Origin: Gnetum montanum
Lineage: Eukaryota > Plantae > Gnetophyta
Direction of reading: 5' to 3'
Assembly (NCBI GenBank): GCA_015680685.1
Contig: MNCI01000248.1
Location: 22,811 to 86,810, forward strand
Length of the DNA stretch: 64,000 nt
Positions 27,901 through 58,189 of this stretch are shown here, one piece after another. Positions within the stretch are counted from its first letter, which is position 1. Each line of letters starts with the position of its first letter. The notes below the pieces were generated by a model, which worked only from the letters and a program-made list of their open reading frames with translations, made no database searches and was not told where the DNA came from. A program made the position numbers and the translations under genes.

Positions 27901-28431
27901 ACTTACTTGGTAGAGCTTTGAGATTTCATCGTGAACTACTAAGGCCAAATCAGGTCTAATCTTGCACATCTTTTGGTTAACTGATCTAATGCTAAGGTCC
28001 AATATGATGTTGTGCTAGACTAGAAATGGGTCTACACTTGGCATATCTTCATATGACTAGGCAAATGCCTTAATGTTGTTTAGTAAGATCTTGATGATGT
28101 CTTAAGTGCATTGAGGCTCCAGTGAGGAACTTAGTTTAAGGATTTTCTCTTCACCACTGTGTTTTGTGATAGGAACCTCAACTAGAGAGTCTTTAGTTAT
28201 GCCTTCCACTTCTAAGTCAAGGATTTTGACTAGAGTTTCAAGCCATTCTATAGGTTTCTCTATTAAGGCTATGTGTTCTACAAGACTCTTAGGCTTAAGA
28301 TCTAAGCAATTAGGGCTAATACACCATTTAATATTACCATGAGGTCCATGTAGATAGAAAGGAAAACTAATTTTCTCCTAGGTACTCATACTTTGATTTT
28401 GCATATCAACCAAAAGCTTATTAAGTGGCAC
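24950..28431 (-). pseudogene. pol of element E (RT-RNase H-aRH-integrase, without protease)
   Basis: FA*SYEDMPSVD; EWVSNIVVVPKKNGSI; YLDD at ~27514-27525; RLNHKKCVF. aRH CTINIADFEGLI.G..DDSQLVVNQV. Integrase EYFTKWFEAI, ALWEYRITYRIAT..YSLVYGFEA, GSFHITRVYGNGAF. Confidence 0.92.
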
Positions 28432-28462
28432 CTAGATAAAAGTGAATAAATAATGTTAAAAT
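28432..28462 (-). promoter_or_regulatory. Putative 3' splice acceptor in front of RT
   Basis: Minus strand tttTAACattatttattcacttttatcTAG|GTG: branch point, pyrimidine tract and AG. The following frame (VPLNKLLVDMQNQSM..) runs into RT with no frameshift. Confidence 0.65.
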
Positions 28463-29099
28463 GCCATAAGACATGTAAATATAATGCAATCAAGACCATC
28501 CAAGGTCATCAATGAGATAAGGTCAATTCAAAAAAGTGAAATAGAGGTAAGAAAAGATCACATAAAGGTCAAGCAATGGCAAGTATAATAAGTAAGGCTA
28601 CATATGGCCAACAAAGGTCATAATTTTGCCAACTTAAGGCCTTAGTAGGCAATGATGCTAGTTTAGTCTTGGTGGACTATGATACTAGTTTAAAGCCTTA
28701 GTAGGCCATTATCGTATGGTGTCAAATAATGGTTAGAGAAGGTCAAACCCTACTATTTGATACAATTTAAAGGCCAAAAAAAGTAAATAGAGAGGTAATA
28801 AGATAAATAGCAAACATATAAGGTTGTATAAAGGCTATAGAAGGTCAACCATGTCATCAAGGCAACATGAGTCCAAAATCAAGCTAAAACATTATGTAAT
28901 AAGGCAAAAAGAAAACAAAATAGGATATATATGATAAATTTTAACTAATATATGCCAAAAATGGTTAAGTTTTTTCTAGTTTTAAGCCTTAACATGCCAT
29001 GTTTTGAGGCTACAATTAAGGTTATTAGGTGAGTTCAGGCATCAATCAAGGCTATTTTTGGGCTTTTTGTAGCCAAAAATTAAGTGTTTTGAGGCTTCC

Positions 29100-31800
29100 A
29101 CATTGGGCTTAGCATGGAAATAGGGACCCTTAGTATGGAGAATAAGGAAAATAGGTTTTGGGATGCTTAGAGGTCCAAAATTGAGGTTCTAAGACCTTCC
29201 CAAGGTACTACAAGGTTAGATCCCTAAAAATTGAGCACTCTAGAGGTTTGTAAAGGCCAAAAAGTAGGTTTTGAAGACTTTCCCACTTGTTTCTATGATG
29301 GCCAACATGGAAAAGATGATTTTAGCATGGAGAACCAAAATCCAAGCAAACCCAAGATCAAATATGATCAAACACGTAGCTAGAGTCAAGATCTAGAACT
29401 TGTGCATCTTCTGACTTTGTTCTAAGATAATTTGAGGCAATTTCATGTGTCTATAGATTTCAAAATGGATTTCCCCATTCTTATGTGAGGGGAAAAATAT
29501 CCTCCATGTGAGAAAATAGGGAGACACTTGTTTTATGAATTTAGAGTAATTTAGAAATACTTTGACTAGGTTTTTAGGCCCCTAGGACTATAGACTTTGA
29601 TTCTACAAGTTTCTGTCTAATTTTGGGCATGTTGAAAGGTTTCTTAAGGGAACTTAAGGTTATGCCCCAATTATTTCTATGCTAGGTAAGTTAATAGAAT
29701 GTATAATAATCGAAGGAATGGGTTTTAGAGGTTTAAATGAGGTCAAACAAGTAAAATATTGAGGCTATGAGGTCCTAGGATTCTCCAACGTAGATCTTTG
29801 GCTTCCAGGGTGCCATCTTGATAGAAAAAATGGAAAACCAACTTTCCTCTCTATTTCCACACTAGGTGAGTTACTCTAGCATGGAAGAAGAAAGAATCCT
29901 AGATCTAGGCCAATTCAGATCACAATCTATTATGCATGATACCTCTCGGAGTTGCTAGGTTTAAGAGCTATGGATCCATGTAATAATTTAGCAATTTTGA
30001 GCATCCCTAAGTGGTTTTTGGCTTTTCCACTATTTCCACACTATAGATGGAGATCTTAACATCCAGAAAAAAGGAAGAATGAAATTTTTGGCAATCTGGG
30101 ATTAGATTTATGAAGTTTAAGGGCTGCAATGGTTGCTACTTGAGTTCTAGAATGCATGCAAGGTCATTTAATGTCATTCTGAAGTGTTTAGACATCCCAA
30201 ACAAGCCCCCCCTAAGTTTCCATGCTAAAAATAGATCACTAGTGTGGAAGAATCATGCAGCTTAGATCTAGGCCAATTTTTACCTCAATCAACTATGCAT
30301 TTAGCTTCCAAGGCTACTAGGGTTGAAGACTAGGGTTTGGAGTCAAAACTTGTTATTTTATAGGCTTTCCAAGTGGATTTTGAGCATCCCCCTATTTTTC
30401 CATGTTGGGGATAGTATGACCATTGTAGAAAATTTTGAGGAAATAAATTTTCATACTTTTTTATCATTTTTAGTCATGCATGTAGGTCCTTGAGGTTGCT
30501 AGTGGCATTGGGCAATTCCTATGTTAAAATTTTGTTGTTTTGAAGGTTGATGAGTGGTTTTTGGACTTCCCTACCTTTTCCCATGCCAGGATTCCATGAT
30601 CAACATGGAAAATTGGGGTGAAAGCTTTTTGGTCATGTTTGGTCACTTTCGATCATGCATGCAGGCTTCCAAGATTGTTAGTGTTGATTGCTACTACTTG
30701 ATGTCAAAATTTGATTGTTTCAAGGGTCACTAGGCATTTTTTGGGCTTCCTTCCCTTTTTCATACTATGGCTTCCAAGGTTGCTAGCATCAACTATTAAC
30801 ATCTAATGTTAAAATTTGTTTATTTCAAGCATCACTAAGAAAGTTTTAGGCTTCCAACTTTTTCCTATAATAGGGCTTCTATGATCAATGTGGAAATTTT
30901 GGGAGAAAGCTTTATGGCCCTTTTATGATCAATCTAGCTATGGATGAGTGTCTATAGGGTTGCTTGTGTTATCCATTCGTGCCTAAGGTCAAGATCTGAT
31001 TATTTTGAAGGCTATGAGGGGGTTTTAGGATTTCCAAATTTTTTCATGCTAAGGGTGGAACGATTATTATGGAAGAGGTCTCCCCCAATTAAGAAAGTTA
31101 GATCTAAGCTAGATCGATAGTCGATCAACCATGCATGTCAACCTTCAAGGTTTTCAATGTCAACAGTTAATGTTGGGTGTTAAGATTTGATAATTTAAAG
31201 GCTTCTAAGTGCCTCATGAAATCTACCCCCTTCTTCCATGCTAGGCATGGTGGCCCTAGTGTGGACAAGAGGGGATGACATCTTTGTGCCATATTTGACC
31301 AATTTTGGAAGCTCTAGAGGGTTTTAGCAAGGTCTAGGGATCATTGGGCATCAAGAAATGGTCATTAGATCATCAATTTAGATTATTTTTGTCTTTCCCC
31401 CATCTATCCACACTAAGGGTGAGATTCTTAGCATGGAAGAAGCTTTCACCAACATGGAAAGCATCAAATCCTTATTTCAACAAATTTTGACTAAGTCTGG
31501 TGGGGTTCTGAGGCTATTGGTGGGGTTCACTTTGGGGTTAAAATTATGTTAGATGAGTCTTGGGAGGTAAGAGTGATTGCTAACCCATTTTTTCCATGTT
31601 GAGCACTATTTTCCTAGCATCGAAATCCATGGTGCTTAGCCTTACTCATGTCTTGTCCACTTTTGGAAACCCAGGGTTGAAAAAGGTAGGTTTGGTCTAT
31701 CAAAAATAGAAAAATATTTGTAATTCTAATGAATTTATAAAATAATAAGCATGTTTCCACCCTAGGCATGGTAGTCCCAATGTGGATGCATGAGGTTAAG
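29100..31800. repeat. ~180 bp-period degenerate satellite with palindromic TTCCA(C/T)(G/A)CT-N12-14-AG(C/T)(G/A)TGGAA core
   Basis: Cores at ~29855, 30035, 30218, 30397, 30578, 30862, 31043, 31235, 31406, 31592 and 31755. Confidence 0.75.
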
Positions 31801-32241
31801 GTTTCCATATTGTTTTAAGTGTCAAAATTGGCCAAAATCTCAACGTTGATGTAAGTTTTGGTCAAAAGTGAAGGTGTAGGGTGGGGCCCATAATCCAAAA
31901 ATTTAAAATTTTGAAAAGTGAAGGTATTCTCCACCCAAAACCAATGTAAACTAGGCTTTCACCTTTTGTACTTCAATGCACTTTTAGTTATGGTGCACTG
32001 AATTGATAGCTGGGGTTCCAAGGTGTGTGTTTAGGTTTTAGAAGAGTTTTATATATCAAAATTTTCAAGTTTTCATCACAATTTTCATTATACATCAACA
32101 ATGCATTGGAGGAGAGCTCTAGTAGAGGTTCTTGTGGCAACCACAACCAATTCTCAGCATGGAATCCTCCCATCTCCCTTGTAGCCAGCATAGAACTTCT
32201 ATCTTCTCTTAATCTCAATCATCCTTAGCATTGAGCCTACC

Positions 32242-34594
32242 ATGGCACCCGAGAAGTGAGGGGTAAAGAGAAAAAACCATATGTTACAGAGGATAGATGA
32301 ATGTTCTTGATCTATCTCCATCTAAGCTTCTTCTGTTACTTCTTTGAGGTAGGTAGTTCTGCCTATTTTTGCCTTTGTTTCTTATGGTTTTTCTAGTTTT
32401 TTTCTTCCTATGTGGTAAGGCAACTTTTTTCATATCTACATTGGTGGAGGAATTAGGATAGAATTATGACAAAATCCAACCTCCTATTTTAGTGTGAATT
32501 TTAATGGTTTTCAATGATTTTGGCTATTTCGACTATCTCAATGGCTATATGAAATTTAGGCCTTAAGGTTTTTGGAAGTTTTAGCATGAGGTTTTTGGAA
32601 GTTTTAGCATGAAAAAGCAAGCAATGTTGTGTATTTTTTTTTTCATGCTAAAATGGCTACATATTTATAAAATTTAAGGTCATGGGACTGTAGCAATTTT
32701 TTAACCTTTCCTATGGCTATTTTCTAATTTAATTTGACCTTGAAATAAAGACATTATGGCCATTTTCCTAACATTGCACAGGTAGGTTGCTCATGCCGCT
32801 TTTACAATTTTGTGTGACTTTACAAACTTTTTCTAATAAAATGACAAAGTCTTTGGCTATTTTCTAGTAATGGCTACATAGGAATTGGCTTCAACTTTCC
32901 AATAAAGGTGGAATTACTTTGATTGGATTTAAAATAAATTTTTTACAAAATTTTTACTAAGCATGTATAATAACAATGTTTATGTTATTTTTAGATTATT
33001 GTCCAAATTGATAAATTTTTTTTGCATAAACAAAAAAGGTTTTAACTTTTTTCTAAGCATGGCTACATAGGGCTTTACATAAGCTTTCAAATAGTGGTGG
33101 AATCACTTGGTTTGAAGCTCAAACAAAGTTTTTATGAATTTTTTGCTATGGCTATGTTAATCAAGGTAAAACTCATGGTTGTGGTACATTACCCATTTGA
33201 AAATAGAAGTGGTTGATATTATAAACTTATGTTTTTCTTTTGTGAACATGTAAAACTTAATTATTCTTTTTTAAGAAGAGTAAAAGCATTTTTCTATTTT
33301 AAATAAGCTTTTACTATGGCTATGTGGCCTTTTCTAAGTTTATTATGTTTTTTCTAAATTTGTGCATAGTTTAGATGATTTTTCCAGATTTATGCATACT
33401 TTGCATAATTTAGATGTTTTTTCTAAACTTGTGCTTACTCTTTCCAAATTTATGCATAATCTAGATGCTTTTTTCTAAATTTATGCACAATGTAGACTAA
33501 GACATAGTTTTGGGCTATGAAATTTTGGCTATAAAGACCATAAAATATGGTAATAATGCTTTCATGAAATTTCTCAAGCTAAGTTAGATAAACATCTAAG
33601 AGCTTTTTATGGAGGCTAATTTCACCTCTAACTTAGAAAGTTTTTTCTAAACTTTTTAAGAAATTCCAATGGTTCATAATGTAAGGTTATGCAAGGTTGT
33701 AATAATGTTTTCTTGTGGAATTACATAGACTAATTTAGATAAATACCTTAGAGCTTTTTACAGAGGCTAATTTCACCTTCAAATAGATGTTTTGCCCAAA
33801 TTTTTTAAGTAATTTCCATTGGTCATAACCTTTTTTGTGCTTTGCTTCATGTAGGGTCTTCTTAAGGCCTATTCTCATCATAATGGAGCTAGTTGGTATC
33901 TTGTGCTACATTGGTCATTCTAAGATCAACACCCTACCACATGACATGCCTTTCAAAGACCTCTCATTGTGGTTCCAGCTTGGGGTAAGAGACTTCCTTT
34001 CCTACCTTCTTAGAAAATTTATCGTAATGTTGTGGTCACACTTATCTATAGATGTAGCTAGGGTTGTTGTGGAGACCTTGTTGCCTCAGGCATCTAGCCT
34101 AATTGCTAGATATATTACTAATAAGAAATTCCCTAAGACTATAGGGGGACCAACTAATGCCATAAGTCCACATGACCTTATAGAGATCTAGATGATGTTA
34201 GTATAATACTAATGATACTCTGATGGTTGTGCATTGACCCCACACATTATTCTAGAACCCACCTGTTACCATGTACAATATACAAGGGTAAACATGACTA
34301 TTGTAATGATTTTATGCTTTTGGCTTAATTAGCTTACCTAACTTCATCAATTTAACTTCTTGAAGGTACAAGGTCAATGATTAGGACTTGATTGTCAATA
34401 ATCAAATCTTGTTAGTGGCTCAAACTACTTTGGATGAATTCACCAAGAGTCCTAAAATTAGAGCTGCTGTGTATCAACAATTAAGAGGGGACTTTGATGA
34501 ATATACCACTAGGTTTAACCTCATATAAAAAAAGTGTAAGGATGATGGAATGATGCACAACTAGTGGGTATATTTCAATAGCATAGATTACTCC
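32242..34594 (+). pseudogene. Antisense accessory gene of element E, 5' part (exon 1, FCP1/NIF-like HAD exon, next exon), split by element F
   Basis: TATA-like at 32050, ATG GCA CCC at 32242, donor gag|gtaggt at 32349, acceptor catgtag|g at 33854. Exon RPILIIMELVGILC..WFQLGVRDFLSYLLRKFIVMLWSHLS is homologous to the exon at 40575 in F. Confidence 0.75.
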
Positions 34595-36978
34595 TGTGAT
34601 GTCTAAAAATGTCGATGGCTAGAACACCAAGAGGTTATCGGGCATATAGCCTAACCCTGAATCTGTGCAAGGGCTGTGCTGGAGAAAATGAAAATGAGGT
34701 GCCTTGAATAGTCTGATCGATTACTCGGGGACTTACGTGATGTACAATAACCATATGCAACTAGTATTTTTAAAATGTAACATGTTGAGGTTGAAATGGA
34801 AGAAAATGAGAGGCACACAACAATAGGAATGCATCAAAGTATGTAACCAAGACAATAAGCATGAACAAGTATACAAAGATGCAACATATATGTTATAGTA
34901 AAAATGGAATGAGACTTTAGGTGAGGTAATGCACCACCCAAAAATCATGGGATCTAATCTTTTTTTGGTTGATGAATGTGTACAACTAGTGTGTAGTACT
35001 AGATAGGCACAGTTGGCAACAAAACGATATGGTCACAACTCCTAGGTTGCTACCAATGGGACGTTAACAGGAACCAATGAGCTGATGCTTGCTAGGATGA
35101 GAGCCACTATGAGGAGAGATCTGAGAAGTTCTACTGCTAGGATTTGTTGTTTATCAACTTTCTTTTTTTCAAACTCTTTGCCAATGCTTACTGCCAAAAG
35201 CCAACCTCTAGAAGCCAACATGAAAATCCAACCCTTAGAATGTTGTTTGCTAGGGTATTTATAGAGCCAAGAGTGAGAGAGAGATGTGTCTTGGATTTCA
35301 TGTGTCTTGGGTCCTAGAGGACACAAATGTGAATGTGCTTCGCTAACATGTGGTGTTATGTTGATGTGCTACACTGAATGGAACAATGCTACAAGTGAAA
35401 CCTATTGAGCTATGAACATATCGTTCAGATTGGATGTACCCAAGGGACTACCATATTTTTACAAAAAATTCTTATGAAAAATGTAACATGAAGCTTATGC
35501 TTCAAGACTACATCTTCCCCTCTCTTACAAGTAGGGTCAAGCATAAAGATAATTTTAGGACTCAACAAGGGCTACAACAAGCAAAGAAAACTACTGATCT
35601 TGGCTGCCAAGGAGATGCTGGGGCTGAAATAATCATCGACAACAAGTCCTAGAGCTTCTAGAGATTCCTTGTGGCATCTTTTCAAGTGTTACACTACTTA
35701 TGCTGCTTAGCATAGGAAAGGAGCATGAATACCCACTTGCTACATTATGCTACACTACATAGCGTAGCAGAGTGTAATAGTCACTTTTGAGACAAATCTT
35801 GCTCAAAAACTAGAAAATACCCCTCTGAGGCTTGCCAAGGTAAGCTATTTCAGCAACTAGCCATTACAATTTTCATCTTAAAAGGGCCCAAGTCTTCCTG
35901 GTTTCATCCTTGGGGCACCTTTTATCGTTTAGGTCCTTGCTACATTGTGCTACGTTATGCAGCATATCACAATGTAGCAGTTAGTCTGGGATGAATTTGA
36001 GTCACAACCTGCAATGTTTTGTTAGGAGACTTTGATTGGGACCTAAGGGTGAAGTGGTATAGGTAGTCTTAAAGGTTAAAGCATGGCCAAGTGCAATTAT
36101 TTTTCTTGAACAAGTTGATGCAGAATCTTCTGGCATTATCACCCTGCTACATTATGCTACGCTATGTAGCGTAGCACAACATAGCACCTAGTTTTGTCTG
36201 AATTCTGACCTATTTTCCAAGTGTTCTATCATGGGCTATTAGTCATATTCTAAGGTGGTAGTAGAGCAAGCATTTTTCATGGTTGAAGCATGGGCAATTG
36301 TGTTTTCCATATCAAGATAGTTTGAGAAAATATTTTGTCATGATAGGGCCCTACTACGTTGTGTAGCGTATCACATCATAGCACTCGGAATAAGGTGATT
36401 TTTGATGAAATTTTCTCTATTTTTCTATGTTATACTGATCATACTTCAAGGATGAAGTGGGTAACGCATCTTTGAAAACCAAATATCTACCAACTGCATC
36501 TTTTTCATCTGATCTAACACTTGCAATAATTTTGACACCACATCACCTGCTACACTATGCAATGTAGCATAGTGTAGTAGGGTTCACAGTTAGAAAATTT
36601 GCCAAACTATTTAGTCCATCGTAAAAACCTTCGATAGCTCCTAGTTTGGCACTTGGGTGGACCACCGACTGGGACATTTGTCAAGCTGGACAAGCTAGAG
36701 AGTGTAGCAAGCTTGATAGCCTAGGAGAGAGAAAATTTGCTGAACTACATGGTCCACTTTTAGTGCCTCTATTATGCAAACTGGCCTCATGACTGGGTGC
36801 TACATTGACTATGCTATAGGGGGTGGTAGGCAGGCCCAGAAGTGGCTTCGTAGACATTAGGACCTTTAGAGCATCGTGTTGTCTATGTGACCCAACATGA
36901 TACTTCACTTGTAGAGATACTTGCCCAAATTTTGGGACTGTGTTGAATCATGAGAGTCCCAAAATTGATGGTGTTTCA
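34595..36978 (-). repeat. 3' LTR of element F
   Basis: Colinear with 48932-51335. Minus-strand TATA ctctataaatacc at ~35258. Followed by the PPT complement atggctcctctttg. Confidence 0.92.
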
Positions 36979-38434
36979 ATGGCTCCTCTTTGTTGATGTC
37001 TAGAGGATCTTCCCAAGAGATGTCGATAAAGAAAATGAAACACCATGCTGAACGTGACACCCACACCATTCTTCAGTGCTTGCTTAGATAATGCTTTACT
37101 ATGCTTGGGAGTGCTAGGAAAGCTAGGTATGATAGAGAGAGGGGATGGGTTTGAGGAAATTTGGCTAGGGAAAAGGAAAGGTGTAGGATGCATTATCATG
37201 AACTGTTACCATAGTGTGATCCCTTGTCAGGATGCTTATGAGGGATTCAACACACACATGAGTGGCTTCTCCCTTTGGATTTTAACCTCTCATCGGAGTG
37301 CTTAGAGGTGGTTGATCTAAAGCTAAGATGATTGCAAAGCAACTATGCCATTTGTTTTGGCCACTTGGCTATGTCACCATTTTTCATTTCCTTTTTTTCC
37401 TTAGGGAAATCACACACCCATGTTCATTCGAAGGTAACTATGTCATCATTGTAGGATAAGTGTTTCCTCCCTGGGATGAGTCTGTGTTACATCCATGTGG
37501 GCTTTGACTAGTCTACAGGGGATTCCCATGGGACAAGCTGCATTACGTCTATCATGAGCTTGGTGCTTGGGCATGTGAAAGGGCTTTATGTGCATTGGGA
37601 AAGCTTGTGAAGAAGATGTTAGAAATTGTAAGTATAGGAAATGGAAATTAATTTGGCTAAAGAGAGAATGGGATATGCACTCTCAAGTAGCTAAGTTGAT
37701 CTAAGTGGGTACTTCTGAATAATGTAGTGTGTTGTTCTCATGGTGGAATGCATTCATGAACGATGCCATCTTGGCTTTTATCCTACAAATAAAACAAAGA
37801 GAAAACTAGAAAAACTACTAGCATGTGAGGTGAGGGCAAAGCTCTATCTACTCAATATATTGTTGAGGCAAAAATTGCTATGTCTGACATGTGTAATGTT
37901 TGAAGCAAGAAGACCAGCATTGACTTTGAAGGTGGTAGGCTAGAAAAATTCAATGGCCATGCTAGAAATGAGCATTCAAGAGGCTAGGAGTAATGGTAAT
38001 ATAGGTGCTCAGGAATCCCCACCAAAGGTAAGAGCCATGAAATCCAGTTGCAAGGTGAGAAGTCCAACAACTGAATGCTTTTTTAGACTTTGATGATGGT
38101 AAGGGCTAGAGGATGGTAGCATTGTGGCTAGGCAACAATAGTGTTGGGACTCTAGTAGAAGGTGTTGATGGTGAGAGCTATGACCAAGATGATTGGTAGT
38201 GATGGCAGTAGCTTCGGAAGGTTAGCAAGATGTCAAATGACATCTTTGGAAGATCAACAAGATGTTAGGGATGGTGATGCTACATGTGTCCTAGAGAGTT
38301 TTTCCTTGATGCTATGAACTTCATTATAGAACTACAAAATCCCACCCCATATTACCTAGGAAGCTCAAAGATATGCATGCTTGTTTGTTCACAAGTTCAC
38401 ATGTGTGAGCTAGGAGGTGTTACACTGCAAACCC

Positions 38435-39220
38435 AGTTTTAGGTCTTGGTAGACCATCATATGTGCTAGTTTAAAGTCCTAGCAAATCATGGTCCTAGTT
38501 TAATGTCTAAGCAAATCAAGCTATACTAGTTTAAGGTCCCAATAGACCGTTGTGCTAGTTTAAGGTTCTAGCACACAGTTGTGCTAGTCTAATGATGTAG
38601 CGGACATAGGATGGCCAGTTTAAGGTCATAGCGGACCATGTTGTGGGTGCCAATTTTACGTTATGGCCTAAGAATAATTTGTGCTAGTTTAACATCATAG
38701 AAAATATTCTATGCCAATTTTATGTTGTAGTAGATGATCTACTTACCTTGCTTTATGTTTGGCCAGTCTAGGGATGTTTCTAAGGATGCTATGTTGGTGT
38801 CACAAGGGGATGGTTCCAAGTCTACCAACTCTACATTCAAATGTTTCATAAACCTACCATGGGGTCTTGTCAGAGTTAAGGACGAATGTAGATTATCAAT
38901 AGTAGCCATTTTTAAAGCACTCTTGCAATAATAAGAAGAACAAAAAAAGTCAAGTGGTACTTGCTTAACACAACAACATGTAATGAAATATATGCAAGGT
39001 AACTATGCAATGTTAAAAAGTTTCCAATTTAAGGTCATAGAAAACCATAACCATGCAACATTACATGCCAAAAACTACTAATTTAAGGTTGTAGCAGATC
39101 ACTACTATGATTATAATATAAAAGAAAAACCCCAAAATTACTACTTTCAGGTCATAGCAGACCATAATTGAGCAACATTGTAAGTTAAAATTGCTGGTTT
39201 AAGGTCGTAGCAAACTGTTG
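38435..39220. repeat. TAGTTTAAGGTC-type hairpin-unit array
   Basis: About 10 units at 38435-38735 with ~29-32 bp spacing, plus about 4 more widely spaced units at 39025-39220. Confidence 0.8.
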
Positions 39221-39431
39221 TTGGGCAACATTATAAAAATGAGGTGAAAATTTTGATGCATTTACATGCTATGCTGCAGCTGTGTGCTATGATGTAGTAG
39301 ACATGGGGTGTCCCATCCTATGCTGCAAGGGACAAGGACATTCCGCATTACACGTGAAATGCAGGACGTCCTACATTACATGCAGGACATGGAACATCCT
39401 GAAAAGTAATAGGTGTTGTAATCCTATAAAC

Positions 39432-44199: not shown

Positions 44200-44480
44200 T
44201 TTTAGTTTAAGGCCTTTTCAGGCCATTGCTAGTTTAAGACCATTTTGGGCCAAACATAATGTAATTTTCAAGAGTGGGGTTGCTAGTTTTAGGCCTTGGC
44301 AGGCCATAGCGATAATTTAAGGTTATTCCAAGCCATGTGTAAACTGGTTTTTGAAAGTGGTGTTGCTAGTTTTAGGCCTTAGCAGGCCATGATAGTAGTT
44401 TAAGGCCATTCTAGGCCATAGCGATAGTTTAAGGCCCTTCTGGGCCATAGCAGTAGTTTAAGGCCATTTTAGGCCATAAT
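44200..44480. repeat. TAGTTTAAGGCC-N5-7-GGCCAT hairpin-unit array between protease end and antisense gene end
   Basis: About 8 well-preserved units, e.g. tagtttaaggccattctaggccat. Confidence 0.85.
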
Positions 44481-44589
44481 TGCTTTAACTAATGCTAATG
44501 ACAAAGATGCAAATAGAAAAATTAATGCAAAATGGAAATCATGTGAACAAAAGTATAAAATTTATTTAGGCAAAGTGGAGGTAAACTTT

Positions 44590-47500
44590 AGTCATGCAAT
44601 TGTTTCCTAATCTGACATGGGTTAGGCAGGGGATAGGCTTGAGAAGCCTTGTAGTGGTTTTTCTCTATGCTATCATCTATCATTTGGAAGGGCAATTCAG
44701 CCCACATGGTTTCTTCATTTAAGTCAATAGTTCTGGATGGATCATTTGTCAAACATGGAATTTTAGCCTGAATGGGTGATTTGTTTTCAGAGATTTCTAT
44801 CTCTGATCCTTACTCCACGTCTATATTGTTTATGGCTTAGGGAGCTACTTCATCATGAAAGATCACCACCTCTTCATCCACATAGGGTAAGTGGATCTCT
44901 TGGTGTATGGATGAGGAGACAACTCTTAGTTGGGCTAACCACGATCTTCCTAAGATCAAGTTAAACCCAGGAATCTCCTCCACCATAATGAATACTACGC
45001 TAGTGGGAAACTAGTCCCCTACTATGAAGTTGATGGTAATAGTTCCCTTGAGCACAACACATGCCCCATTGAATGACTTTAGACATGAGGTTGCTATGGG
45101 CTTGATTTGATCCACCAGGCCCAACTTGTCCACAATGGGGAATGGTATCACATTCGTGGCAGCCCCATCATTGACATGTACTCTATGAATTTTATACTGA
45201 CCTATCCAAATCGTGATAAACATGGGTATGGTAGTCACTTGACCAGTTTCAGGGTCATCTTTGATGGCTTTGTGATGAAGTGTTAACTAGGTTGGTTGTA
45301 GTTCTTTAGCCACAGAGGAAAGCATAACAACATGGATAGCTTTCTCTTCAACTGGCATGTTTTCACTAACATAAATAGATGCTAGCATGCAAACCAAGGC
45401 CTCATGATGTGCCATAGAGGTCATTATTAAGTTATACAAGCTTAATGTTGTGTTCTTTTATTTCAAGGCCTGCTTAACCTATGAAAGTGCATTTAGGAAG
45501 TCTTGTCCACTGTATGATTGTTTGCTAATATTTTCTTCTTCTATGCACCCTAGAAGATGAATCTCCCAAGGGGGAGTGGCTTTAGGTTGGAGATAAAGCT
45601 TTTTTGAACTAAAGGGTGATGGTTGCATATGTGTGTTACCACCAATGGCTAATAATGAAGAGGTCATGGGAATTTTGGACAAGGGGGTGGGCTTAGGAGG
45701 GTCCAACGCAATGTGTTCTCTAGCCAACTTATCTGCTAAACATTCTTTGTGTTTCCTTAGATGAGGAGCTGAGATGTAGTGCTTGTCACTTGACTTTGGG
45801 TGGTAGGGAAACTCGCATGCTTTGGCACCTTGATAACAAATGGTGCCTAATTTGTTGTAGTGGGATGCGATGTAGTTTTAAGTACAAAAGGTGTAGCAGA
45901 TGTCTATGGAGAGGTCCTAATGACAAAGGGGGTTTGTGATCTAGTTGTTGTTGAAGCTTCAACATTGCAAGGGGGGGGGGGGGGNACATGAACCATGAAT
46001 GGTTCATGTTGTGATTCTACATTATCATCAATGCCAACGACATTGATAGTGCAACTTGCATTGTTAGTGTTCAAAGGATCTTTGTAAACATTCATCGATT
46101 GGTTGTCAAGTCAAACAAGACTACTCTCATCCAGGACCAACTTACCCTAATCAATCATTCACTATATATCATCTTTCAATGCCAGGTAATAATCTGTATC
46201 ATGCCCACACAATTGATGATAATTGCAAAAACACTCTAGCTTGAAGTTCCTAGGTACTGGTGGTTCATTAGGCATAGCTAAGGAGGGATCTCAAAGGACT
46301 TCATAGTACCTTTGGTGACACTTAAGGACCTTCTTTGACATCTATTTATGTTGGATATGTCCAATCCCCAGTAATTGACTCAAAATATCTGAAGGCTTAA
46401 TTGGTAATGGGGTATATTTTTAGTGATCCTTGCACTCAAAATTTGACCTTGGCGGAGTTTGCATTGTGGGTGTTAATGCTGGGGGCTAACTCATGCTACT
46501 AGACTCAGGTGTTGTGTTAGTGGAGGATTTAGTTGTTGTGGCAGTCTTTTTACTATTGTTGGACTTGGTCTCATTAGCCACAGTAGCCACTGTGGTTGTT
46601 GTTGCCTATCTTTTCTCCTTTTCTTTCTTTGTATGTGTGTTTTTATAGGCTACGTAGGCTAGATCTCTATTGGCAGCTACTGCATCCTGAATGCTTTTAG
46701 TTTGAGTGAATGCTTGGCCAAGGGAACAAAAAAGCTAAATAATATAGTTTGGACTTGATAAAATTGTTTACTACTCCTTTGAAAATAGCTAGCAAATGGG
46801 CCTCGGCAATTGATTCATGTATTTCATTTAGGGTAGCACTCCAATATTGTATGAATTTTTGTACGAATTCTAGTGGTTCTTGTTTAACATTCATGAGTTG
46901 ATTTAAAGTGACTTTCCATTTCAAGTTATACTTAAAATGAGTCACAAAGTAGCTTATAAATTCTTCTAATGTTGAGATAGAAGCGTGAGAAAGCGCATGG
47001 TACTAGTCTAAGGCCTTTCCTATTAAGGACATGGTGAACAGATGAATGATGGTATGGGGCCACGGTTGTAGTAACAAGGATTCAGACCTAAAAGTGACTA
47101 GGTGGGCATTCAGATCACCTTCCCCATTGTATTTTTTAAAACTAGAGAAGTTATACCCCATGGGGAAACATAAGCACGAGAACAATTGGACTAATTAGGT
47201 CATCTTGGTAGAATTCCATGACTTGAACAATTTTAGAACTAGCAACTTTGAGCCATTTAATTTCTTCGATGAGGGTTTGGATGAATTGAGGGCTTGGCCC
47301 AGACCCAAGGGTGTTACAAGGGGTTGTGAAGCTACTAGAGTAGCCATCATTGGTGGCACTGTTGATGTAGCTACCAATCCCATTGTGGATGCTATTGGAA
47401 TAGCTCTTGGTAGTGGTGTTGTTTGAGCAAGCCCCAACCTAGTGGGTAGTGCCGTTGGAGTAGCTAGCATTGGTGGTGCTATGGGGGTGGTTATCTACCC

Positions 47501-48375
47501 AATGGTTGGGATGGTCCATAGTTCCATGTTTGGTTGCATTACATGTAAAACTTGGTATGTTTGGGGCTATGCATATTGTGGCACATGAGACATTTGAGCT
47601 GCAAGAAAAGAGGTCATTGTTGTCCACCATGTGGTTGAGGTTGGGCCTACTACCGATGATGGAATGGATGTAGAGGAGGGGACAAAAATAGAACTTACAT
47701 GTAGTTGTGATGTGGGCATGTTGTGCATGTATGATAGTATGGGCATCATAGACATTGGGTGTGGGGCTTGGACAGACTAGGAAGGTTGATTAATGAGGAA
47801 TGATGTTGAAGGACCTGCATGCTAATACATTGACAATATTTGATGACTACCCATCACTAAAGAGGGTCTAGGTTGTGGTAGTGTCATGGCAGTAGAAAAA
47901 GAGGTAGAAAATTGCTATTTGTGTGAACGAACAACTAAGGTGGAAGGGACAATCGTAGCATAGTTTGGGCCACCACCTTCAGAATGGGAATCTAACTCCT
48001 CTTGGCTATCATGAAAAGGTTCATTGTAGTGAGATGTTGTGTCCCATTCTCTTGATTTGTTCAATTGCAAAAGTTGGCTTAAAAGCGATTAGTACATTTA
48101 TGTGAGTGGAATAGTGATATCAGAAGTGGAAATAAATTCTCTTTCATTCCAGTGGATGATTTCAAAGTTATGTTTTTCCTAAAATTTATGATGATCCAAT
48201 GGTAGATTTGCTTGGATCTTGGCACATAAGAAGTTATATCACTCTACGTTTTGAGGTAGACGTTCAGGTGATTGATGATACAGTCTAAGAGATTGCCACT
48301 ATACTTGTATTGGGCTAGGCGATCACTTGGGATCCGCTATGTGTGGAACAAAGTGAGACACCTCCACACTCATCG
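44590..48375 (-). pseudogene. gag-protease remnant of element F
   Basis: FKKYNGEGDLNAHLVTF..LFTMSLIGKALD*Y; knuckle CNYHQLCGHDTDY; protease IHRVHVNDGAATNVIP..FIMVEEIPGFNLILGRSWL. Confidence 0.88.
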
Positions 48376-48904
48376 TAGGAACCAAAGTGGTAATAGGATT
48401 AATTTTTTTGATATGAAAATAGTATGTTTTATGTTAAACAGTTAAGGTTTGAAGCTGTAGAGAATATTGATTGAAACTGGGGACATCTAAAAATGTTGAA
48501 AGGCTAGTTTTCTTCACTACGCTACATAGGACATAGGTAGCGTAACATAGTAGATAATTTAGAACCTGCTACACTAATAGGGTCGCTACACTACACAGAA
48601 CATAGGCAGCATAATGCAGTAGATAGGTAGCATAACATACTAGACAGTGTAGGAAATGCTATACTAATAGAGTCACTACGCTACATAGAACGCAGGCAAC
48701 ATAACGTAGTAGATAGGTAATGTAACACAATAGATAGTTTAGGGATTTCATCCTACAAGGTTCTAGAGGAACTGTCATGGCGACCAATCTACACCACCTA
48801 GTGCGTAGACAACCACAGGGGTGTCATGTCTATGCTAGCAGGCTACTAGTGATAGGATACAGATAGCATGTAGGATTACCCATGACACACAAAAGAGACA
48901 TGGA

Positions 48905-48926
48905 AGTTCAGGCCCTCCTAGTGCCA
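48905..48926 (-). promoter_or_regulatory. Primer-binding site of element F (tRNA identity not assigned)
   Basis: The minus strand reads TGGCACTAGGAGGGCC five bases after the LTR's terminal CA. Confidence 0.7.
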
Positions 48927-48931
48927 AAAAC

Positions 48932-51335
48932 TGTGATGTCTAAAAAATCAGTGGCTAGAACATCGAGAGGTTATCAGGCATATAGCCTAACCCTAGATTT
49001 TTGTGAGGGCTATGCTAGAGAAAATAGAAACAGGGTGCCCTAAATAGTTTGTTCAATCAATCAGGGACTTACATGGTGTACAATAACCATATGCAAATAG
49101 TAATTTTAAAATGTAACACGTTGAGGTTGAAATGGAAGAAAACGAGAGGTTCAAAACAATAGAAATGCATCAAAGTATATAACCAGGAAAATAAGTGTGA
49201 ACAAGCACACAAAGATGCAACATATATGTTATAGAAAAAATGGAATGAGAGTTTAGGTGAGGGAATGAACCACCCCAAAATTGAGCGATATAATCTTTGT
49301 TTAGCTAATGAATGTATACAACTAGTGTGCAGTACTAGATAGGCACAGCTGGTAATGGAATGATATGGTCACACCTCCTAGATTCGTATGGATGGGGTGC
49401 TAACAGGAACCAATGAGCTAATGCTTGTTGGGTTGAGAGCTACTATGCTAGGTTGAGGAGAGATCTGAGAAGTGCTACTGTTAGGATATGTTATTTATCA
49501 ACTTTCTATTCACCAGTCTCTTTGCCAATGCTTACTGCCAGAAGCCAACTACCCAAAAGCCAACCTCTAGAAGCCAACGTGAAAAGCCAATCCCTAGAAT
49601 GTTGTTTTTCAAGGTATTTATAGAGCCAAGAGTGAGAGAGAGATGTGGCTTGGATGTCATGTGTCCTGCATCCCACAGGACACAAACATGGATGTGCTAT
49701 GCTGATGTGTGCTACTATGCTAATGTGCTATGATGAATGGAATGATGCTAGAAGTGAAACTTGCTAAGCTATGACCATATCATTCAGAATACATGTACTC
49801 AAGGGACCACCATATTTTTACAAAAAATTCTTATGACAAATGTAACATGAAGCTAATGATTTGGGACTACATCTTCCCCTCTCTTACAAGTAGGATCAAG
49901 TGTAGAGAAAATTTTGGGACTCGACAAGGGATGCAACAAGCAAAGAAAATTATTGATCTTGGCTGCCAAGGAGATGTTGGGGTAGAAATGACCATTGATG
50001 ATGAGTCCAAGAGCTTTTGGAGATATCCTATGGCCTCTTTTCAAGTGTTATGCAACTTATGTTGCTCAGCCTAGGGGAGTAGCATGAATACCCACTCGCT
50101 ACACTATGCTACATTGCACAGCATAGAAATCACCTTTGAGACAAATCTTGGTTAAAAACTAGAAAATACCCATTTGAGGCCTAGAAAGGAAAGCTATTTC
50201 AGCAACTAGCCATTGCACTTTTCATGTTTAAAGGGCCCAAGAATTCCTAGTTTCATCCATAGGGCACCTTTTATCTTTTAGGTCCTTGCCACATTATGGT
50301 ACACTATGTAGCATAGTACAGCGTAGTAGTTAGTCTAGGATAAATTTGAGTCACAACCTATAATGTTTTGTTAGTTGACTTTGATTGTGACCTAAGGGTG
50401 AAGTGGGATAGGAAATCTTGAAGGTTGAAGCATGGCCAAGTGCAATTCTTTTGCTAGAACAACTTAATGGAGAATCTTCTTGCATTATCACCCTACTATG
50501 TTGTGCTACATTGTGTAGCGTAGCATAGCATGGCACCCAATTTTTCCTAAATTCTGACCTACTTTGCAAGTGTTCTATCATGGGTTCTTGATCATATTCT
50601 AAGGTGGTAGTAGAGTAAGCATTTTTCATGGTCGAAGCATGGGTGATTGTGTTTTCCATACCAAGATAGTTTGAGAAAAGATTTTGCCATGCTAGGGCCC
50701 TGCTATGTTGTGCTATGCTGTGTAGCATATCACAGCATAGCACTTAGACTCAGCTAATTTTTGATGAAATTTTCTCTATTTTTCTACGTTATACTAATCA
50801 TGCTTTAAGGATGAAGTGGGTTAGGCATCTTTGAAAACCAAATATCTGCAAACTGCATCTTTTGTGTCTAATCTAACACTTGCAATAGTTTTGACACCAC
50901 ATGGCCTGCTACGCTGTGTAGCGTAGCATAGCATAGTAGGCTTCATAGTTAGAAAATTTGCTGAACTGTTTAGTCCATCCTAAACATCTTCAACAGCTTC
51001 TAGCTTGGAACTTGGGTGGAATTTCACCTGGGACATTTGTCAAGCTAGAAAAGCTAAAGAGTGTAGCAAGCTTGATAGCCCAGGAGATAGAAAATTTGCC
51101 AAAATGGATGGTCTGCTTTCAGTGCCTCTTTTGTGCAAACTAGCCTCATGACTGGGTACTACATTGACTGTGCTGTAGGGGGTGGTAGGCAGGCCTAGAA
51201 GTAGCTTTGCAGAAGTTAGGACCTCCAGAGTGCTATGTTGTCTGTGTGGCCTAGCGTGGCATTGCACCTGTAGAGATCCTTGCCCAAATTTTGGGACTAT
51301 GCTAAATCATGAGTCTGAAAATTGATGGTGTTTCA
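48932..51335 (-). repeat. 5' LTR of element F
   Basis: Colinear with 34595-36978 and adjacent to the PBS. Confidence 0.92.
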
Positions 51336-54100
51336 ACACCCTTATAGCTAGAACCTTCAAACTGCAAAAGAAACCTAAAGGTGAACATATATCTTCTAGT
51401 GTTTTATAGTTGTAAGAATTTTATTACTTTTTCTAGTTGTTGAAATTGCTCATATTGATGCTAACCTTTAGTTATCTCTTTGCAAGACCTTCCACCTCAA
51501 CTGATGTCACTATACCACTTTCACATTCATGTAATGAGGATACCCGCATCCTGAAGTTTGGTGATGTGACATCAGCACAAGAGTGGCTAAGGGGGTAGGT
51601 GCTTGTATACATTCAAGTGAACATCTAGCATGTAGGTTTGCTTGATGTGTACATGGCACCTATCCCTTCCATTCTTGCTACGAAGATGCTACATGTCATC
51701 AACTCCTTCGATGAGAAGCTTAGTCATTTTAGCACCAACATCCAAGGTGTTAAGATGAACATGGACATAGGTGTTGGCCTCTTTGGTGACTTGTTTGGTG
51801 TCCTTACTAATGGGGCAAAGGTTCCCACTAGGAGGGCAAGGGAATCAAGCCATCACAAAGAAGTTCTAGAGTGGCTTGGTGCTAGCATGAGGCACTCTAG
51901 AATTTCTATGAATAGCTTCATGAACCTTGATGTAAAGGAATCATATCCTTTATTTAGGTCTTGTGCATTCCCCAAACTACTATTTCAAAAGAAGATAATT
52001 AGCCTAGCATAGGGATGGACCTTTAAGAAGGTCTTAATAGAGGGCATCATATTTGATTAGGCAATTACTTTGGCTATTAAGCTTCGAGAGGAGATCCTTA
52101 GACTCTATGTTAACACCTCTATGATAATCCATATGCACTTTACATTTTTTGCAAGTTATCTACAATGGTTTGTATATTTTCTAGTGATATATAGGAATGG
52201 ACGATGGGTTTCCCAGGTCCCAAGCTAGCTTTCTAGGCCTTGGCTAAAGCACATTTATCTAATAGTGTAGGCCTAGAATCCACCAGAGGGGATGGATGAT
52301 ATGTTATCCATTACCACCAAGAATCTTGATCTTAGGTAGTATGAGTCTCCCAATAGTACTGAGGATGATAATCCCCTCTTGTTTCCTACTAGTGTTCAAG
52401 ATGGTAGATGATAATGCATGGAGCCTAAAGGTGCAACTAGAGAGAAACTCAAAAGGCCTATGGATGGGGCATCCTCAACATCAGATCAGCCTACCCCAAA
52501 GAATCTTAAGTTTAAGCTTAAGCGCTCATAATAGGTAGTAGTAGGTATACTTTATTTAAATTTTTCTATTTCATGTTTTAAAATTTTATGGCTACTTTAT
52601 GATTTCATGTGTTATCCTACTTTCTATGTGCTATGGTTGTACATAAGTGTCAGGTTATAGTATCCCAAGCTACACGAGAGGTCAAACAAAGACATGTAGA
52701 AGAGATGCTCTTAAAGTAACCTATGGTTGAAGGGCTTGCCAATACCTCTCCCATCATCACCAAAGAGTAGAGAGAGGAGGAGGAGCAAGGTATGCCTATG
52801 CCTTAATATTTTTGTTATATCTCATTGGTTATCTTTGGTTATCATCCTAACCTTTTGATGATTATTATGCTTATAGTAGTTTCTACATTACTGGCACAAG
52901 CTCCTATCCATAATTTTCATGTGAAACCATGGGTAGAGACTCTAGACAAAGTGGAGCTCCTATGTGGAATGGCTAAGGACAACATTGATCGATTGCATCA
53001 GGTCACACCTGAGATAGGTAACGATTTTGTTCTATGTGTCTCAATCATGGGCTTTGCTTGCATTATGGCTATTTTAGGTTTTTTTTTATGGTTGTATTTT
53101 ATGCTTGTGTAGTACCCTCCATGAAATAGGACCCTAACAAAGACATAGAGATAGACTCCTTGCCTAAACTTCCCTATGATGTGTCTAATGTAGTGATGAA
53201 GCTATACGAGATTGCTACTGATTTAGCAATGTCATGCACAAAAGCTTCATGGAAGCTAGAGAAGTCCAATGAATCCCTATGGGAGGAAGTTGTGGCCTTG
53301 GGGGAAATGACTCAAAGGTAGGAGGATATGATTAGAGATCTCTAAGACTGTAAGGCCTTTGTGGAAGCTCAAGTAGCTAACTCAAGGGAATTACAAACTA
53401 AGGAGATCACATGGGCTTGCTATTGGCATGTTGTTTAGGATAAATTAGTGGTCCTATGAGAGATGGTAGAAAAATGTATGCAAATTTACCTCATCTTCCA
53501 AAATGTTATAGACTAGAAGGATCAATACACTTGGGTCCTAGAGTGGGGCAAGACAGAAAAGGCCCACAAGCATTAATACAAAGCCAATCATGGAGCCTAC
53601 CTAAAGGGGCTTAAGGAGGAGTCGATTGAAAAGTGCAAGAGAGACTTATTAATTTAAGGGATCTAGGTAGAGAGTTCTTCAATTTTTTGAAAATAATCTA
53701 AAGGTGGAGCAATGCCCTACTCTTTAGATCACAATGGTTGGAGGTGAGACCTCTACAATTGCTACTACTCATGAGCCTTCTACTTGGACTTCTATAGATA
53801 GGCCAACATTCTTTTTGACATTTATCTTGGGTATGTTGATTGGGTCAACATGAAAGAGGACCAAATCCTCCATTTTTTGGAGGAAGACCTTCCCCATCTA
53901 CCCTCAAAATTAATGGAACTGAAATCTCCCTAGGTTTGATATATTTTATGTTTTAGTCTTTGTTTCTTAGGTCATGATTTTGGATATGGGATACTAACTA
54001 GCTATATGTTGTTTCATTTTACACATCAAGAGACATTGGTGGCCCTAGCGATGATAGTGGGAATGACCCACCACTTCCTCCTCTAGATGCCACTCAATAG
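51336..54100 (+). pseudogene. Antisense accessory gene of element E, 3' part (PMD-like exon, linker, coiled coil)
   Basis: Donor at 51381 and acceptor at 51486. LDVYMAPIPSI..INSFDEKLSHF..LFGV.TNG..EWLG..YPLFRSCAFPKLL aligns with F. FHVKPWVETLDK matches FHLQSWTEILDK, and DWVNMKEDQILHFL matches DWVNLSEDEILQHL. Confidence 0.8.
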
Positions 54101-54729
54101 CCTTCTTCAATTTAGTTTATTTTTGTTTTTATGTTGATGGATATGATTAACCAAGACTATGATATAGATGGTTTTTACTCTTTGACATTTTTGCCACAAA
54201 GTGTGTTCATGGCTATGCATGTTATGGACATTTTAATTTTCAATTTAAATATTTATTTTATTTTGGCTATATGCATTTCTAGTTGTAGTGAATATTGTGA
54301 ATATTGTAAACCTTGAAAATGGCTATCTTGATGTTTTTGATTATAAAATCAAATTGCTAATTGATGCGATAATAGGCTAAGAAAAGAGAGATGTAGTAAT
54401 AAAAGGGATATTTGCTAGTTTTAGACCATTATGGGCACAAGTTATATAGTTTCTCTAGTTTAAGGCCATGGTAGGCCATATTGCTAGTTTAGAGTCTTGG
54501 TGGATTGTAGTGCCAATTTAATGTCTTGGCAGACAAAGTATGAAAGAGACACTTTTTTTATGTTTAAAACATAAGTAAAAATAAAGAAAGGTTATAGATA
54601 AAAATGCAAAAAAACTTAGGCTAGATACATTCAGCTATGTGCATAAAGCATAAAACAACTATAAATGAAAAGTAACGCTAGATGGCTATCTATGCATCTA
54701 GTCATAGAGGCATGGAAATGTTAAGGAAA

Positions 54730-56580
54730 ACTTATGTAGATTCTTCCGAATCTTTGCAAGATTAGGGAGTGAGTAAGGCCTAATCTACACAAGCTTGTAT
54801 TCACCATCCCCTTCACCTACAATGCTAAAGGAAAGTTCATATCATAATATATCCCATTGCCTATTGTTGTCATTGTTGGCTATCTTGGGTTTTTGCTCTT
54901 CATGGCTAGGAACTTCTTCTTGAAGCTCCAATTTAGACCCCTACTCTATGTCTATATTGTTGATAGCTAGGGAAACTGCATTATTACCATGAATGATGAT
55001 TTCACCTCCCTCGTAAGGAAGTTGAATATCTTAATAAATGGAAGAGGATATAGCTTGTAACTGAGCCAACCAAGGTGTCTTGATGATCAAGTTCAATCTT
55101 GGTGTGTCTTTCACCACCAAGAAGTTTGTGGTTGTAGGGAATTGTTCTCTAGCTATAAAATCCAACAAGATATACCCCTTGATGGAAAATCTTGATTCAT
55201 TAAAGGACTTAAGAATTGTAGTGATTGTAGGTTGTACTTGCTCAGCTAAGCCCAAACATTCAATGATGGTACATGGGATGATGTTGGTTGTAGCTCCATA
55301 ATCAGCATGCACTTGATGTATTTAAATTGTTCTATGTGTGTGGTTATGAATAAAGAGGTTGTAGTAACTTTTCCATTTTTTGGATTAACCTTATTTTGCT
55401 ATTGTAAAATGTTAATGGTGTTAACTTCTCCTCCTCTAGTGAGGGAGGAATCCTTACTGCATGTATGGCTTCCTCATTAGCAAGAATACCCTCACTAACA
55501 AGTATGGAGGTCAACATTTTGACTAGCACCTCACAATGTGTGGTAGAATTCATGATCAGGTCATATAATCTTAGGGCTATGTTTTTTTCATTTGTCATGG
55601 GCTTGTCACCCTATTTATACTTTACTTCCCCCATGTATCCCAAAATGCAGACTTTGGCTTTAGGATTTGGCTATTGTCACTCTTTCTTGTTGTCTTGGTT
55701 ATGGGCTTTGGTGTTCACCTATGACCTATTGGTCGAAGAGGTTGGGGTAGAGGAGGCCATAGGTATAGCCAAAATGGGGGTGGGCTTTGATGGGACTACT
55801 TCTTTTCATGCCTACATCTACTTATCTCCCATATTGTTAGTCCTTTGCATATGCTTCTTCCTTTGGTTGGGTGTAGTTTTCTTATTACCAGTCATTAGCT
55901 GTAAGGAAGAGGCAATAGCATTATCCACCATAGGAGGTCATTGTGTAACTAGTTGATCTATGGTTATTTTGGTTGTATTGGGTTGGGAGACATTGATGAA
56001 AAAAGGTTTTCTTAGAGACACTCATGATGGTACTTTCATAATGAAGGAAGATCTTGAGCTATGGAAAATCGAAGAAGCTCTTTCATTGTAGAGGGATACT
56101 TGAATGAAAAATGGTTCTCCTATAGGTCTACAATTATCATTAATGTTGAACACTAAAATAACATAGGGGCTATCATTAGCATTCAATGAGTCTTTGCAGA
56201 CATGCATCAACTAGGTTTGTGACTTAACTAGATTAGAAGCATTTAAGATCAGTTCCACCTCCACCCCACCCCCNCCTTTCCTATGTATCATTCTTTGTAG
56301 CTCATTCTTTATTGTAAGGTAGAAGTTTGTATCATGACTAAGAATTTGATGATAATGCGCAAAGTAGTCTAGCTTAAATTATCTAGGCAACTGGGGATCA
56401 TCCTTCATTGCTTGAGTGGGATATTTGGCTATTTCACACAATCACTCATGTTTCTTTCAAGTGGCTTCGATAATTTATTTATGTTGCATGCAACCACTTC
56501 TTAATAGTTGGTCTAGTACCTTAGATGGTTTTAAAGATAATGTAGTGTATTTAAACCTATCCTTCTTTTCAAAGGTTTGC
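54730..56580 (-). pseudogene. C-terminal gag and protease remnant of element E (gag N-terminus missing)
   Basis: AHYHQILSHDTNFY..IKNELQRMI knuckle region; VHADYGATTNIIP..FLVVKDTPRLNLIIKTPWL. Confidence 0.85.
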
Positions 56581-58161: not shown

Positions 58162-58189
58162 CTGACCTCTTGGCTTTTTTAAAATGTAA

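Follow-up and report, generated by a model that had tools for sequence, protein, structure and literature searches.

Introduction

The closest described parallel to the locus reported here is Ogre, a group of Ty3/gypsy Tat long terminal repeat (LTR) retrotransposons of 7.7–24.1 kb (PMC6317226, Additional file 5) in which GAG-PROT and reverse transcriptase (RT) are separated by a gap of 274 bp on average, with an intron that is spliced in a subset of transcripts in pea and Medicago (PMC6317226, PMC4408406); Ogre and EVADE are named as intron-bearing exceptions in the available text of PMC12786077. We have analyzed a stretch of 64,000 nucleotides from Gnetum montanum (contig MNCI01000248.1, positions 22,811 to 86,810), hereafter the window, a mass of nested, decayed LTR retrotransposons in CpG-poor plant DNA to which all in-window counts refer. 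It contains a Tat element, E, in which protease (PR) and RT lie almost 10 kb apart with an antisense gene between them, and a second element, F, nested in E, that has the same arrangement. To judge from these sequences, the layout is likely the counterpart, on a much larger scale, of the short Ogre intron, and it spans a whole other gene.

Several other systems share single features with this locus. In TatI and TatII an extra RNase H domain (aRH) lies between PROT and RT, and in TatIII it follows the integrase (INT); REXdb classes extra open reading frames (ORFs) as 5′ or 3′ of the polyprotein, with none between PR and RT in the text available, and it dropped elements of unexpected or chimeric-looking structure (PMC6317226). 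Fusion of Gag and PR occurs in angiosperm lineages, as do antisense ORFs with a plant mobile domain (PMD) at the 3′ end (PMC4408406), and the Retand antisense ORFs sit after pol (PMC11963269). Elements with the order RT, RNase H (RH), aRH, INT have been reported from Ginkgo, yews, cypresses, and gnetophytes (PMC13468544, PMC10508981); the word “intron” does not occur in the main text of either paper, and their available passages on the Tat J cluster are silent on any intron or additional ORF that would separate PR from RT. Foamy viruses make Pol separately, from a spliced mRNA (PMC7828637). None of the literature searched, which takes in only a minority of subscription papers, describes an additional gene lying between PR and RT.

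Results and Discussion

E, a decayed Tat element of the Ty3/gypsy group, lies on the minus strand, measures about 18 kb in total, and is flanked by one of the three LTR pairs that self-comparison detects in the window. Its 5′ LTR (56780..58163 (−), ∼1.38 kb) is followed by a primer-binding site (PBS)-like motif (∼56772–56757 (−)), and the segment 56755–56990 aligns with LTR ends in F and in a further element, D. The 3′ LTR (23621..24695 (−)) has lost its 3′ end and is ∼380 bp short; the two LTRs (57161–58163 versus 23621–24695) are 83.3% identical over 969 aligned columns. Downstream of the 5′ LTR lies a gag-protease remnant (54698..56570 (−)), recognized by tblastx to F and to a third copy, A, and missing the capsid core that both of these have. 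It ends in the tail KIRKNLH, whose final His ends at 54734, with a stop at 54698. The pol region (24910..28431 (−)) has a leader of ∼95 amino acids and many stops and frameshifts, and Pfam identifies in it, in this order, RVT_1 (RT, 27852–27451), RT_RNaseH (RH, 27184–26885), RVT_3 (aRH, 26536–26276), and rve (INT core, 25788–25507); only ∼200 bp separate it from the 3′ LTR.

Arrays of a 29-nt repeat, found by repeat and self-comparison, stand at three places in E: after gag-pro (54412..54546 (−)), before the predicted pol acceptor (28603..28712 (−), 70% identical to 54430–54532 over 104 bp), and after pol (24825..24920 (−)), the last followed by a purine-rich tract (∼24710–24697). Once F (16,744 bp) is taken out, the gap between the protease tail and the pol acceptor measures 9,558 bp, in agreement with a first-pass annotation of the window, which had placed the two at ∼54730 and 28431, about 9.6 kb apart. 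Besides the antisense gene, the gap contains a non-coding spacer (28713..33854 (−)) with degenerate internal repeats that is multi-copy in public DNA runs. Pfam gives no protease match in the gag-pro of E or F; the protease of E was assigned from tblastn matches to the protease region of two relatives (L002 and L007, see below), and also from a D-x-G-[AST] motif that we take to be that of a protease.

F (34595..51338 (−), 16,744 bp) is a pol-deleted relative that lies inside the antisense gene of E. Its LTRs are 84.5% identical over 2,376 columns, and no clean target site duplication (TSD) was found for it. The gag-protease of F (44588..48372 (−); Retrotrans_gag, PF03732, E = 1.2e-4) ends in QIRKQLHD followed by a stop, and the modules beyond it come in the same order as in E, i.e., the 29-nt repeat array (44170..44490 (−), by repeat and self-comparison), the antisense gene (40575..44001 (+)), a spacer, repeat-like units with a T-rich tract (38961..39210 (−); motif at 39204, 39088, and 39034; T content 0.42), an acceptor-like site, and the start of pol (38751..38960 (−)), 5,633 bp from gag-pro. 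This pol remnant of ∼70 codons, with the pattern VPL...MAT...PHG...DL.P...W, is homologous to E from 28431 onward: starting at 38960, it has VPL, the aligned Met (codon 18), and then ∼50 more homologous codons. Its alignment to the pol start of E scores 62, the best non-self score among 3,186 six-frame windows (next independent score 48) and reciprocally the best of 1,950 windows, and none of 2,000 shuffles reached that score. Comparison to E gives no further pol similarity in F beyond 38750, and the pol of F is deleted between this point and a repeat array (38430..38625 (−)) that occupies the place of the post-pol array of E (blastn, 38526–38600 to 24829–24903). Having lost pol beyond these ∼70 codons, F is a non-autonomous derivative. 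The protease region of E is 41% identical to that of F, and likewise to that of A; a search for a longer homolog of the F protease region yielded none among 793 candidates. Because of this 41% protease identity, and because their LTRs are unrelated except in the unique 5′ (U5) region, we regard E and F as two families with one layout.

The third gag-protease copy, A (2119..5860 (−)), ends in KIKQLH (2355), after which T-rich DNA and the same repeats appear once more. A is truncated ∼1 kb past the tail; no RT follows its gag-pro up to the edge of the window, and it shows no antisense-gene match. All three gag-pro copies (E, F, and A) are therefore without an adjoining RT, and both copies with intact downstream DNA (E and F) carry the antisense gene before the pol start.

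The antisense gene is itself conserved between E and F. In E, its first conserved exon (33855..34594 (+); 41% identity over 95 amino acids, 93.6 bits; acceptor score 8.9) lies on one side of F and its 3′ part (51339..53971 (+); tblastx to F, 35–125 bits) on the other, the latter with a predicted 141-nt exon (52877–53017) that has its counterpart at 42894–43034 in the predicted multi-exon gene of F, with AG and GT at identical positions in the two. Plus-strand tblastx blocks between E and F score 125, 93.6, 38.6, 38.2, 35.9, and 34.5 bits (reverse frames, 33–44) and lie at a constant offset of ∼10 kb. The first and second blocks are ∼950 bp apart in E when F is removed, versus 908 bp in F, i.e., the gene of E is collinear across the insertion to within ∼40 bp, and F therefore inserted into an intact antisense gene.

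To place E among its relatives, we compared its RT with public sequences. The best match is a Cryptomeria japonica protein (46%), and a degenerate RT pattern retrieved seven metagenome loci (L001–L007) with RTs 43–46% identical to that of E. PR and RT are contiguous in the Cryptomeria protein P0001; in L001, L002, L003, and L007 the protease and RT motifs lie 1,206–1,485 nt apart in one frame, tblastn shows L004 and L005 to be contiguous too, and L006 is too short. The linker between PR and RT in these relatives contains what we take to be a G-patch-like stretch. In a midpoint-rooted IQ-TREE phylogeny of 30 RT rows (matches of >170 residues from 22 chosen proteins, 21 of which passed, plus the L loci; the chromovirus RT of the window was omitted), E, on a long branch (1.19), groups with P0001 and the L loci (support 95/91), apart from the angiosperm rows, which are labeled by host only. 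Since relatives at 43–46% RT identity have contiguous PR and RT, the split appears to be specific to the lineage of E and derived within it, and on the same sequence comparisons it is probably independent of the Ogre intron. A search for PR-RT linker homology in residues 25–95 of the E pol gave a best E value of 0.034, and that identification was rejected; searches with the pol N terminus returned RT-proximal matches only (12 proteins) and confirmed no loci, and its pattern matches (84 and 4) were left unconfirmed, with 0 from another pattern search. It should be noted that Pfam finds no domains 3′ of pol in L002 and that the metagenome contig L007 (1–7234) carries a related contiguous Tat element twice, the copies adjoining and oppositely oriented.

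These contiguous relatives could be taken to mean that E is a chimera or a one-off rearrangement whose typical family members have pol beside gag-pro, the outcome that the first-pass annotation had attached to finding contiguous PR-RT in other copies. The ∼100-bp direct repeats that flank the inserted block of E would be in keeping with a rearrangement, the TSD of E is not checkable, and no contig spans the gap of E in two public DNA runs. The relatives are, however, different families, at 43–46% RT identity; the gap holds no LTR remnant; the antisense gene of E runs collinearly across F; and F, at 41% protease identity, repeats the module order down to the pol start. Because RT is missing after the gag-pro of both F and A, and because F keeps a homologous pol start and acceptor context, we conclude that this layout is a trait of the lineage, and we regard a chimera, a reading that F largely refutes, as very improbable.

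How, then, might pol be expressed? The frame of pol in E opens at 28431, right behind an in-frame TAG that ends a predicted 3′ splice site (28432..28470 (−)) with a branch-like YTRAY motif and a T-rich tract, and there are ATGs at codons 10 and 15, all as the first-pass annotation had described. With splice-site scores based on approximate, untrained plant weights, the acceptor at 28431 ranks first among the 327 minus-strand AGs in 28100–33800, and 25 of 3,904 AGs across the window score at least as high. From the acceptor to the shared Met (codon 15 in E, aligned with codon 18 in F) the frame is open, without stops, for 14 codons in E and 17 in F; the two leaders differ in length by a multiple of three, and both copies retain V-P-L right at this junction. 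Given a stop frequency of 7.1% in the spacer, the chance of a stop-free leader is 0.36 for E and 0.29 for F, and adding the two 1-in-3 frame coincidences brings it, by our own arithmetic, to ∼0.01. A 9-mer shared by the two acceptors, expected 0.72 times per window and with a chance of 1e-4 only at that in-frame position, is not significant and was dropped as stand-alone evidence.

Because the frame is open from acceptor to Met, V-P-L is retained, and the acceptor ranks first of 327, we favor a giant fusion intron: with about an even chance, in our estimate, the gap in E and F is spliced out in the manner of Ogre into the pol acceptor, to yield a Gag-PR-Pol fusion. In such a scheme, an intron would have split the PR-RT linker in this lineage independently of the angiosperm Ogre, and the accessory antisense gene and the spacer would have come to sit inside it; unspliced RNA would serve as both genome and Gag-PR mRNA, a spliced minority would provide the enzymes, and the antisense gene would be read off the opposite strand. 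At the upstream end, conservation of the protein stops sharply at the LH shared by the gag-pro tails of E, F, and A, and T content after the tail rises in all three copies (0.29 to 0.45, 0.23 to 0.41, and 0.21 to 0.41); the abrupt end and the rise in T fit a U-rich plant intron.

A number of observations weigh against the fusion intron. Within the 70 codons that precede the tail His and the 15 that follow it, no phase-0 GT is an intact shared donor: E has three such GTs, F none, and A four, every one of those in E and A scores below 0, and none is aligned between copies, in line with the earlier annotation, which had seen no conserved donor after the KI(R)K.LH tail. The whole gag-pro alignment has 50 columns with a shared GT, five of them above a low cut and one in phase 0 (in two copies), a weak site (0.1) upstream of the protease; the donor of the antisense gene, by comparison, is still kept in both E and F. 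The stop codon of F falls two codons past the tail His. At the downstream end, protein similarity between E and F begins at the aligned Met, which in F has a strong context (A at −3, G at +4); F reads AA where the acceptor of E has AG, and its AG of like phase stands 3 nt upstream; and in a DNA-only local alignment to E the acceptor site of F falls outside the top 8 of 845 windows. Conservation of the acceptor, on which the first-pass annotation had made its proposal depend, extends to the homologous pol start and the acceptor context and stops short of the AG itself, an outcome that does not refute the proposal. Finally, public RNA runs have 627 and 225 reads over 24600–34700, most of them (88% and 85%) continuing into dissimilar sequence, and among the matches listed from these sparse reads there is no joint or loose end at 28431.

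A separate observation concerns a phase-0 GTTAGT common to E (55499) and F (45370), ∼60 codons upstream of the protease core (position 3128 in A). Its exon side is weak and V-S-E codons also explain it; we rank it low as a candidate donor, one whose Gag-Pol fusion would skip PR.

With no shared in-frame donor found at the tail, a reading in which Pol is free deserves serious though lesser credence: translation would start from the conserved Met (codon 15 in E, codon 18 in F) or an earlier in-frame ATG, on an mRNA spliced to the same acceptor from a non-coding or out-of-frame donor, which could lie in the LTR U5, as in foamy viruses, in a leader exon within the spacer, or at the gag-pro stop or beyond it, and Pol would be processed in trans by Gag-PR. 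The onset of E-F homology at the Met, the A at −3 and G at +4 of the F Met, and the F stop two codons past the His favor this reading, and a phase-1 join at the acceptor would run into a stop at the fourth codon in either copy. In addition, at position 28418, 95,787 of 95,935 units of summed contig depth in run X1, a measure that does not equal copy number, carry the base with which codon 5 reads ATG. On the other side, the in-frame, stop-free leaders of both copies would be unlikely if untranslated, spacer donors are not common to E and F, and Pol of Ty3/gypsy elements is normally packaged as a Gag fusion.

The U5 region offers this free Pol a possible donor. A block, TAAGTCCC, is present in all four LTRs that retain U5, at 56923 (E), 49071 and 34735 (F), and 15264 (the LTR shared by D and A), and it is kept although the surrounding U5 is only 61–65% identical. 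Within it, both F LTRs have a full GTAAGT donor, whereas the GT is not intact in the LTRs of E and D/A; a fifth TAAGTCCC occurs by chance inside the gag of A, and donor scores of at least 3.5 are reached by 41 of the 2,872 GTs in the window. On the free-Pol reading, Pol would be fully uncoupled from Gag, with a free RT-RH-aRH-INT made from its own spliced mRNA, protease left on Gag, and two interleaved spliced units on opposite strands, an outcome that we hold to be a real possibility short of an even one. To enter particles, free Pol would depend on RNA or on the conserved basic tail of Gag-PR, KI(R)K.LH, for its recruitment, and each of the two opposite units would enter its coding region via a conserved acceptor.

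Pol might, alternatively, be transcribed from a promoter of its own in the spacer, in which case the acceptor-like site would be a T-rich leader or an unused relic of an old intron. The AG missing at the homologous position in F and the lack of a splice joint among the matches listed from the 627 and 225 RNA reads would both be accommodated, and the spacer may be a promoter region by analogy with the antisense genes of Retand and Grande, which reportedly have their own promoter (Gomez-Orte 2013, cited in PMC11963269). RNA coverage is too low, however, for the absence of joints to count, and 28431 is the best of 327 nearby AGs and coincides precisely with where the pol frame opens; we consider a separate promoter improbable. 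The first-pass annotation had proposed either a hugely expanded Ogre-type intron or a separate pol mRNA; the layout behind that proposal holds as a trait of the lineage, and the intron would be a spliced one only by inference, in an element that is not Ogre proper.

In terms of classification, E has the GAG-PROT-RT-RH-INT organization of the Tat clade with an extra aRH, and its RT groups with aRH-bearing Tat elements. The aRH lies between RH and INT, as in the Ogre of REXdb and not as in TatI, TatII, or TatIII. Further likenesses to Ogre (pea, Medicago; REXdb Ogre, lineages IV–V of Ustyantsev) are a PR on the gag ORF, a non-coding gap before RT-RH-aRH-INT, tandem repeats, an extra ORF, and a total of ∼18 kb, within the 7.7–24.1 kb of Ogre. 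Unlike in Ogre, where splicing has been shown, it is inferred here; the gap is 5.6–9.6 kb (5,633 bp in F, 9,558 bp in E) instead of a mean of 274 bp, and the RT of E falls outside both angiosperm groups of the tree, i.e., outside the Ogre/Retand-like rows. The element most likely acts like Ogre, yet, because of its RT clade and gap size, it is not an Ogre member.

With the gymnosperm Tat J elements (Cryptomeria SUGI_0456270, L001–L007), E shares the pol order and the RT cluster (95/91), but their PR, linker, and RT are in one frame, ∼1.2–1.5 kb apart; E is consistent with Tat J by way of the Cryptomeria protein P0001. An antisense accessory gene, conserved and flanked by tandem repeats, is also a feature of Retand, Grande, and TatIII (Transposase_28, or PMD with a coiled coil; PMC11963269, PMC4408406), where, as far as the available texts describe it, it lies between pol and the 3′ LTR; in E, the antisense gene is upstream of pol, has no PF04195 match, and leaves ∼200 bp after pol, which sets E apart from Retand. 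Foamy viruses (Spumaretrovirinae) would be a match only if Pol were made here from a separate spliced mRNA (PMC7828637), and they differ in that their Pol has its own protease, whereas PR is on Gag here, in the absence of an env here, and in being an unrelated lineage.

The locus points to a strategy for expressing Gag and Pol that lies outside the main plant LTR classification, and, if this is true, a split between PR and RT arose at least twice in Tat elements. With PR and RT 6–10 kb apart and a gene between them, annotation by domain order would likely split or discard such elements. In two public DNA runs, 131,585 and 118,520 contigs match 24600–34700 at ≥80%; they cover all 30 bins of this region, thinly at some positions, with collinear indel joints in the spacer. 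Since more than 100,000 contigs per run map to the pol-plus-spacer region, the E family is abundant, and many of its copies may therefore be mis-annotated as pol-less or gag-less fragments. Two signals in the public runs were not used: a contig joint between 24866 and 28643, which has repeats on both sides, and a strand bias in run X18, uninterpretable without library strandedness.

As to the antisense gene, its first conserved exon opens at a shared plus-strand acceptor (33855 in E, 40575 in F); a 5′ exon may therefore lie at a distance, within the spacer or out to the 3′ LTR, and the gene is likely intron-containing, to judge from its predicted splice sites. The predicted protein has no Pfam match (including PMD and Transposase_28, PF04195) and no homolog among 150 candidates of a protein search; a profile search against the PDB gave only four matches, at E values of 0.03–0.04, to an unrelated dehydrogenase, and its AlphaFold model has a pLDDT of 30.7. 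A motif in it may be likened to those of PMD or coiled-coil proteins, a likeness that these searches did not bear out.

Other Elements in the Window

The 1.4-kb 3′ region of F past its pol deletion, which has no counterpart in E, contains the top-scoring minus-strand acceptor of the window (37782 (−), 10.2). Behind three LTRs of the window, that of E included, there are PBS-like motifs. An LTR at ∼16211–15135 (−) has the pol of D upstream and a PBS-like motif, leader, and the gag-pro of A downstream (19170–15135, 14868–2355), so that D and A look like a tandem of two Tat elements with a common LTR; element B (6475–14868) interrupts the downstream part. D is in turn interrupted upstream of its RH by an AT-rich, heavily decayed RT-RH-INT segment without aRH (22200–19500 (−)), which we take to be chromovirus-like. 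At the edge of the window, A is truncated by a CpG-rich, apparently young sequence (1–1300), with 28 CpGs in the first kilobase versus 0–15 elsewhere.

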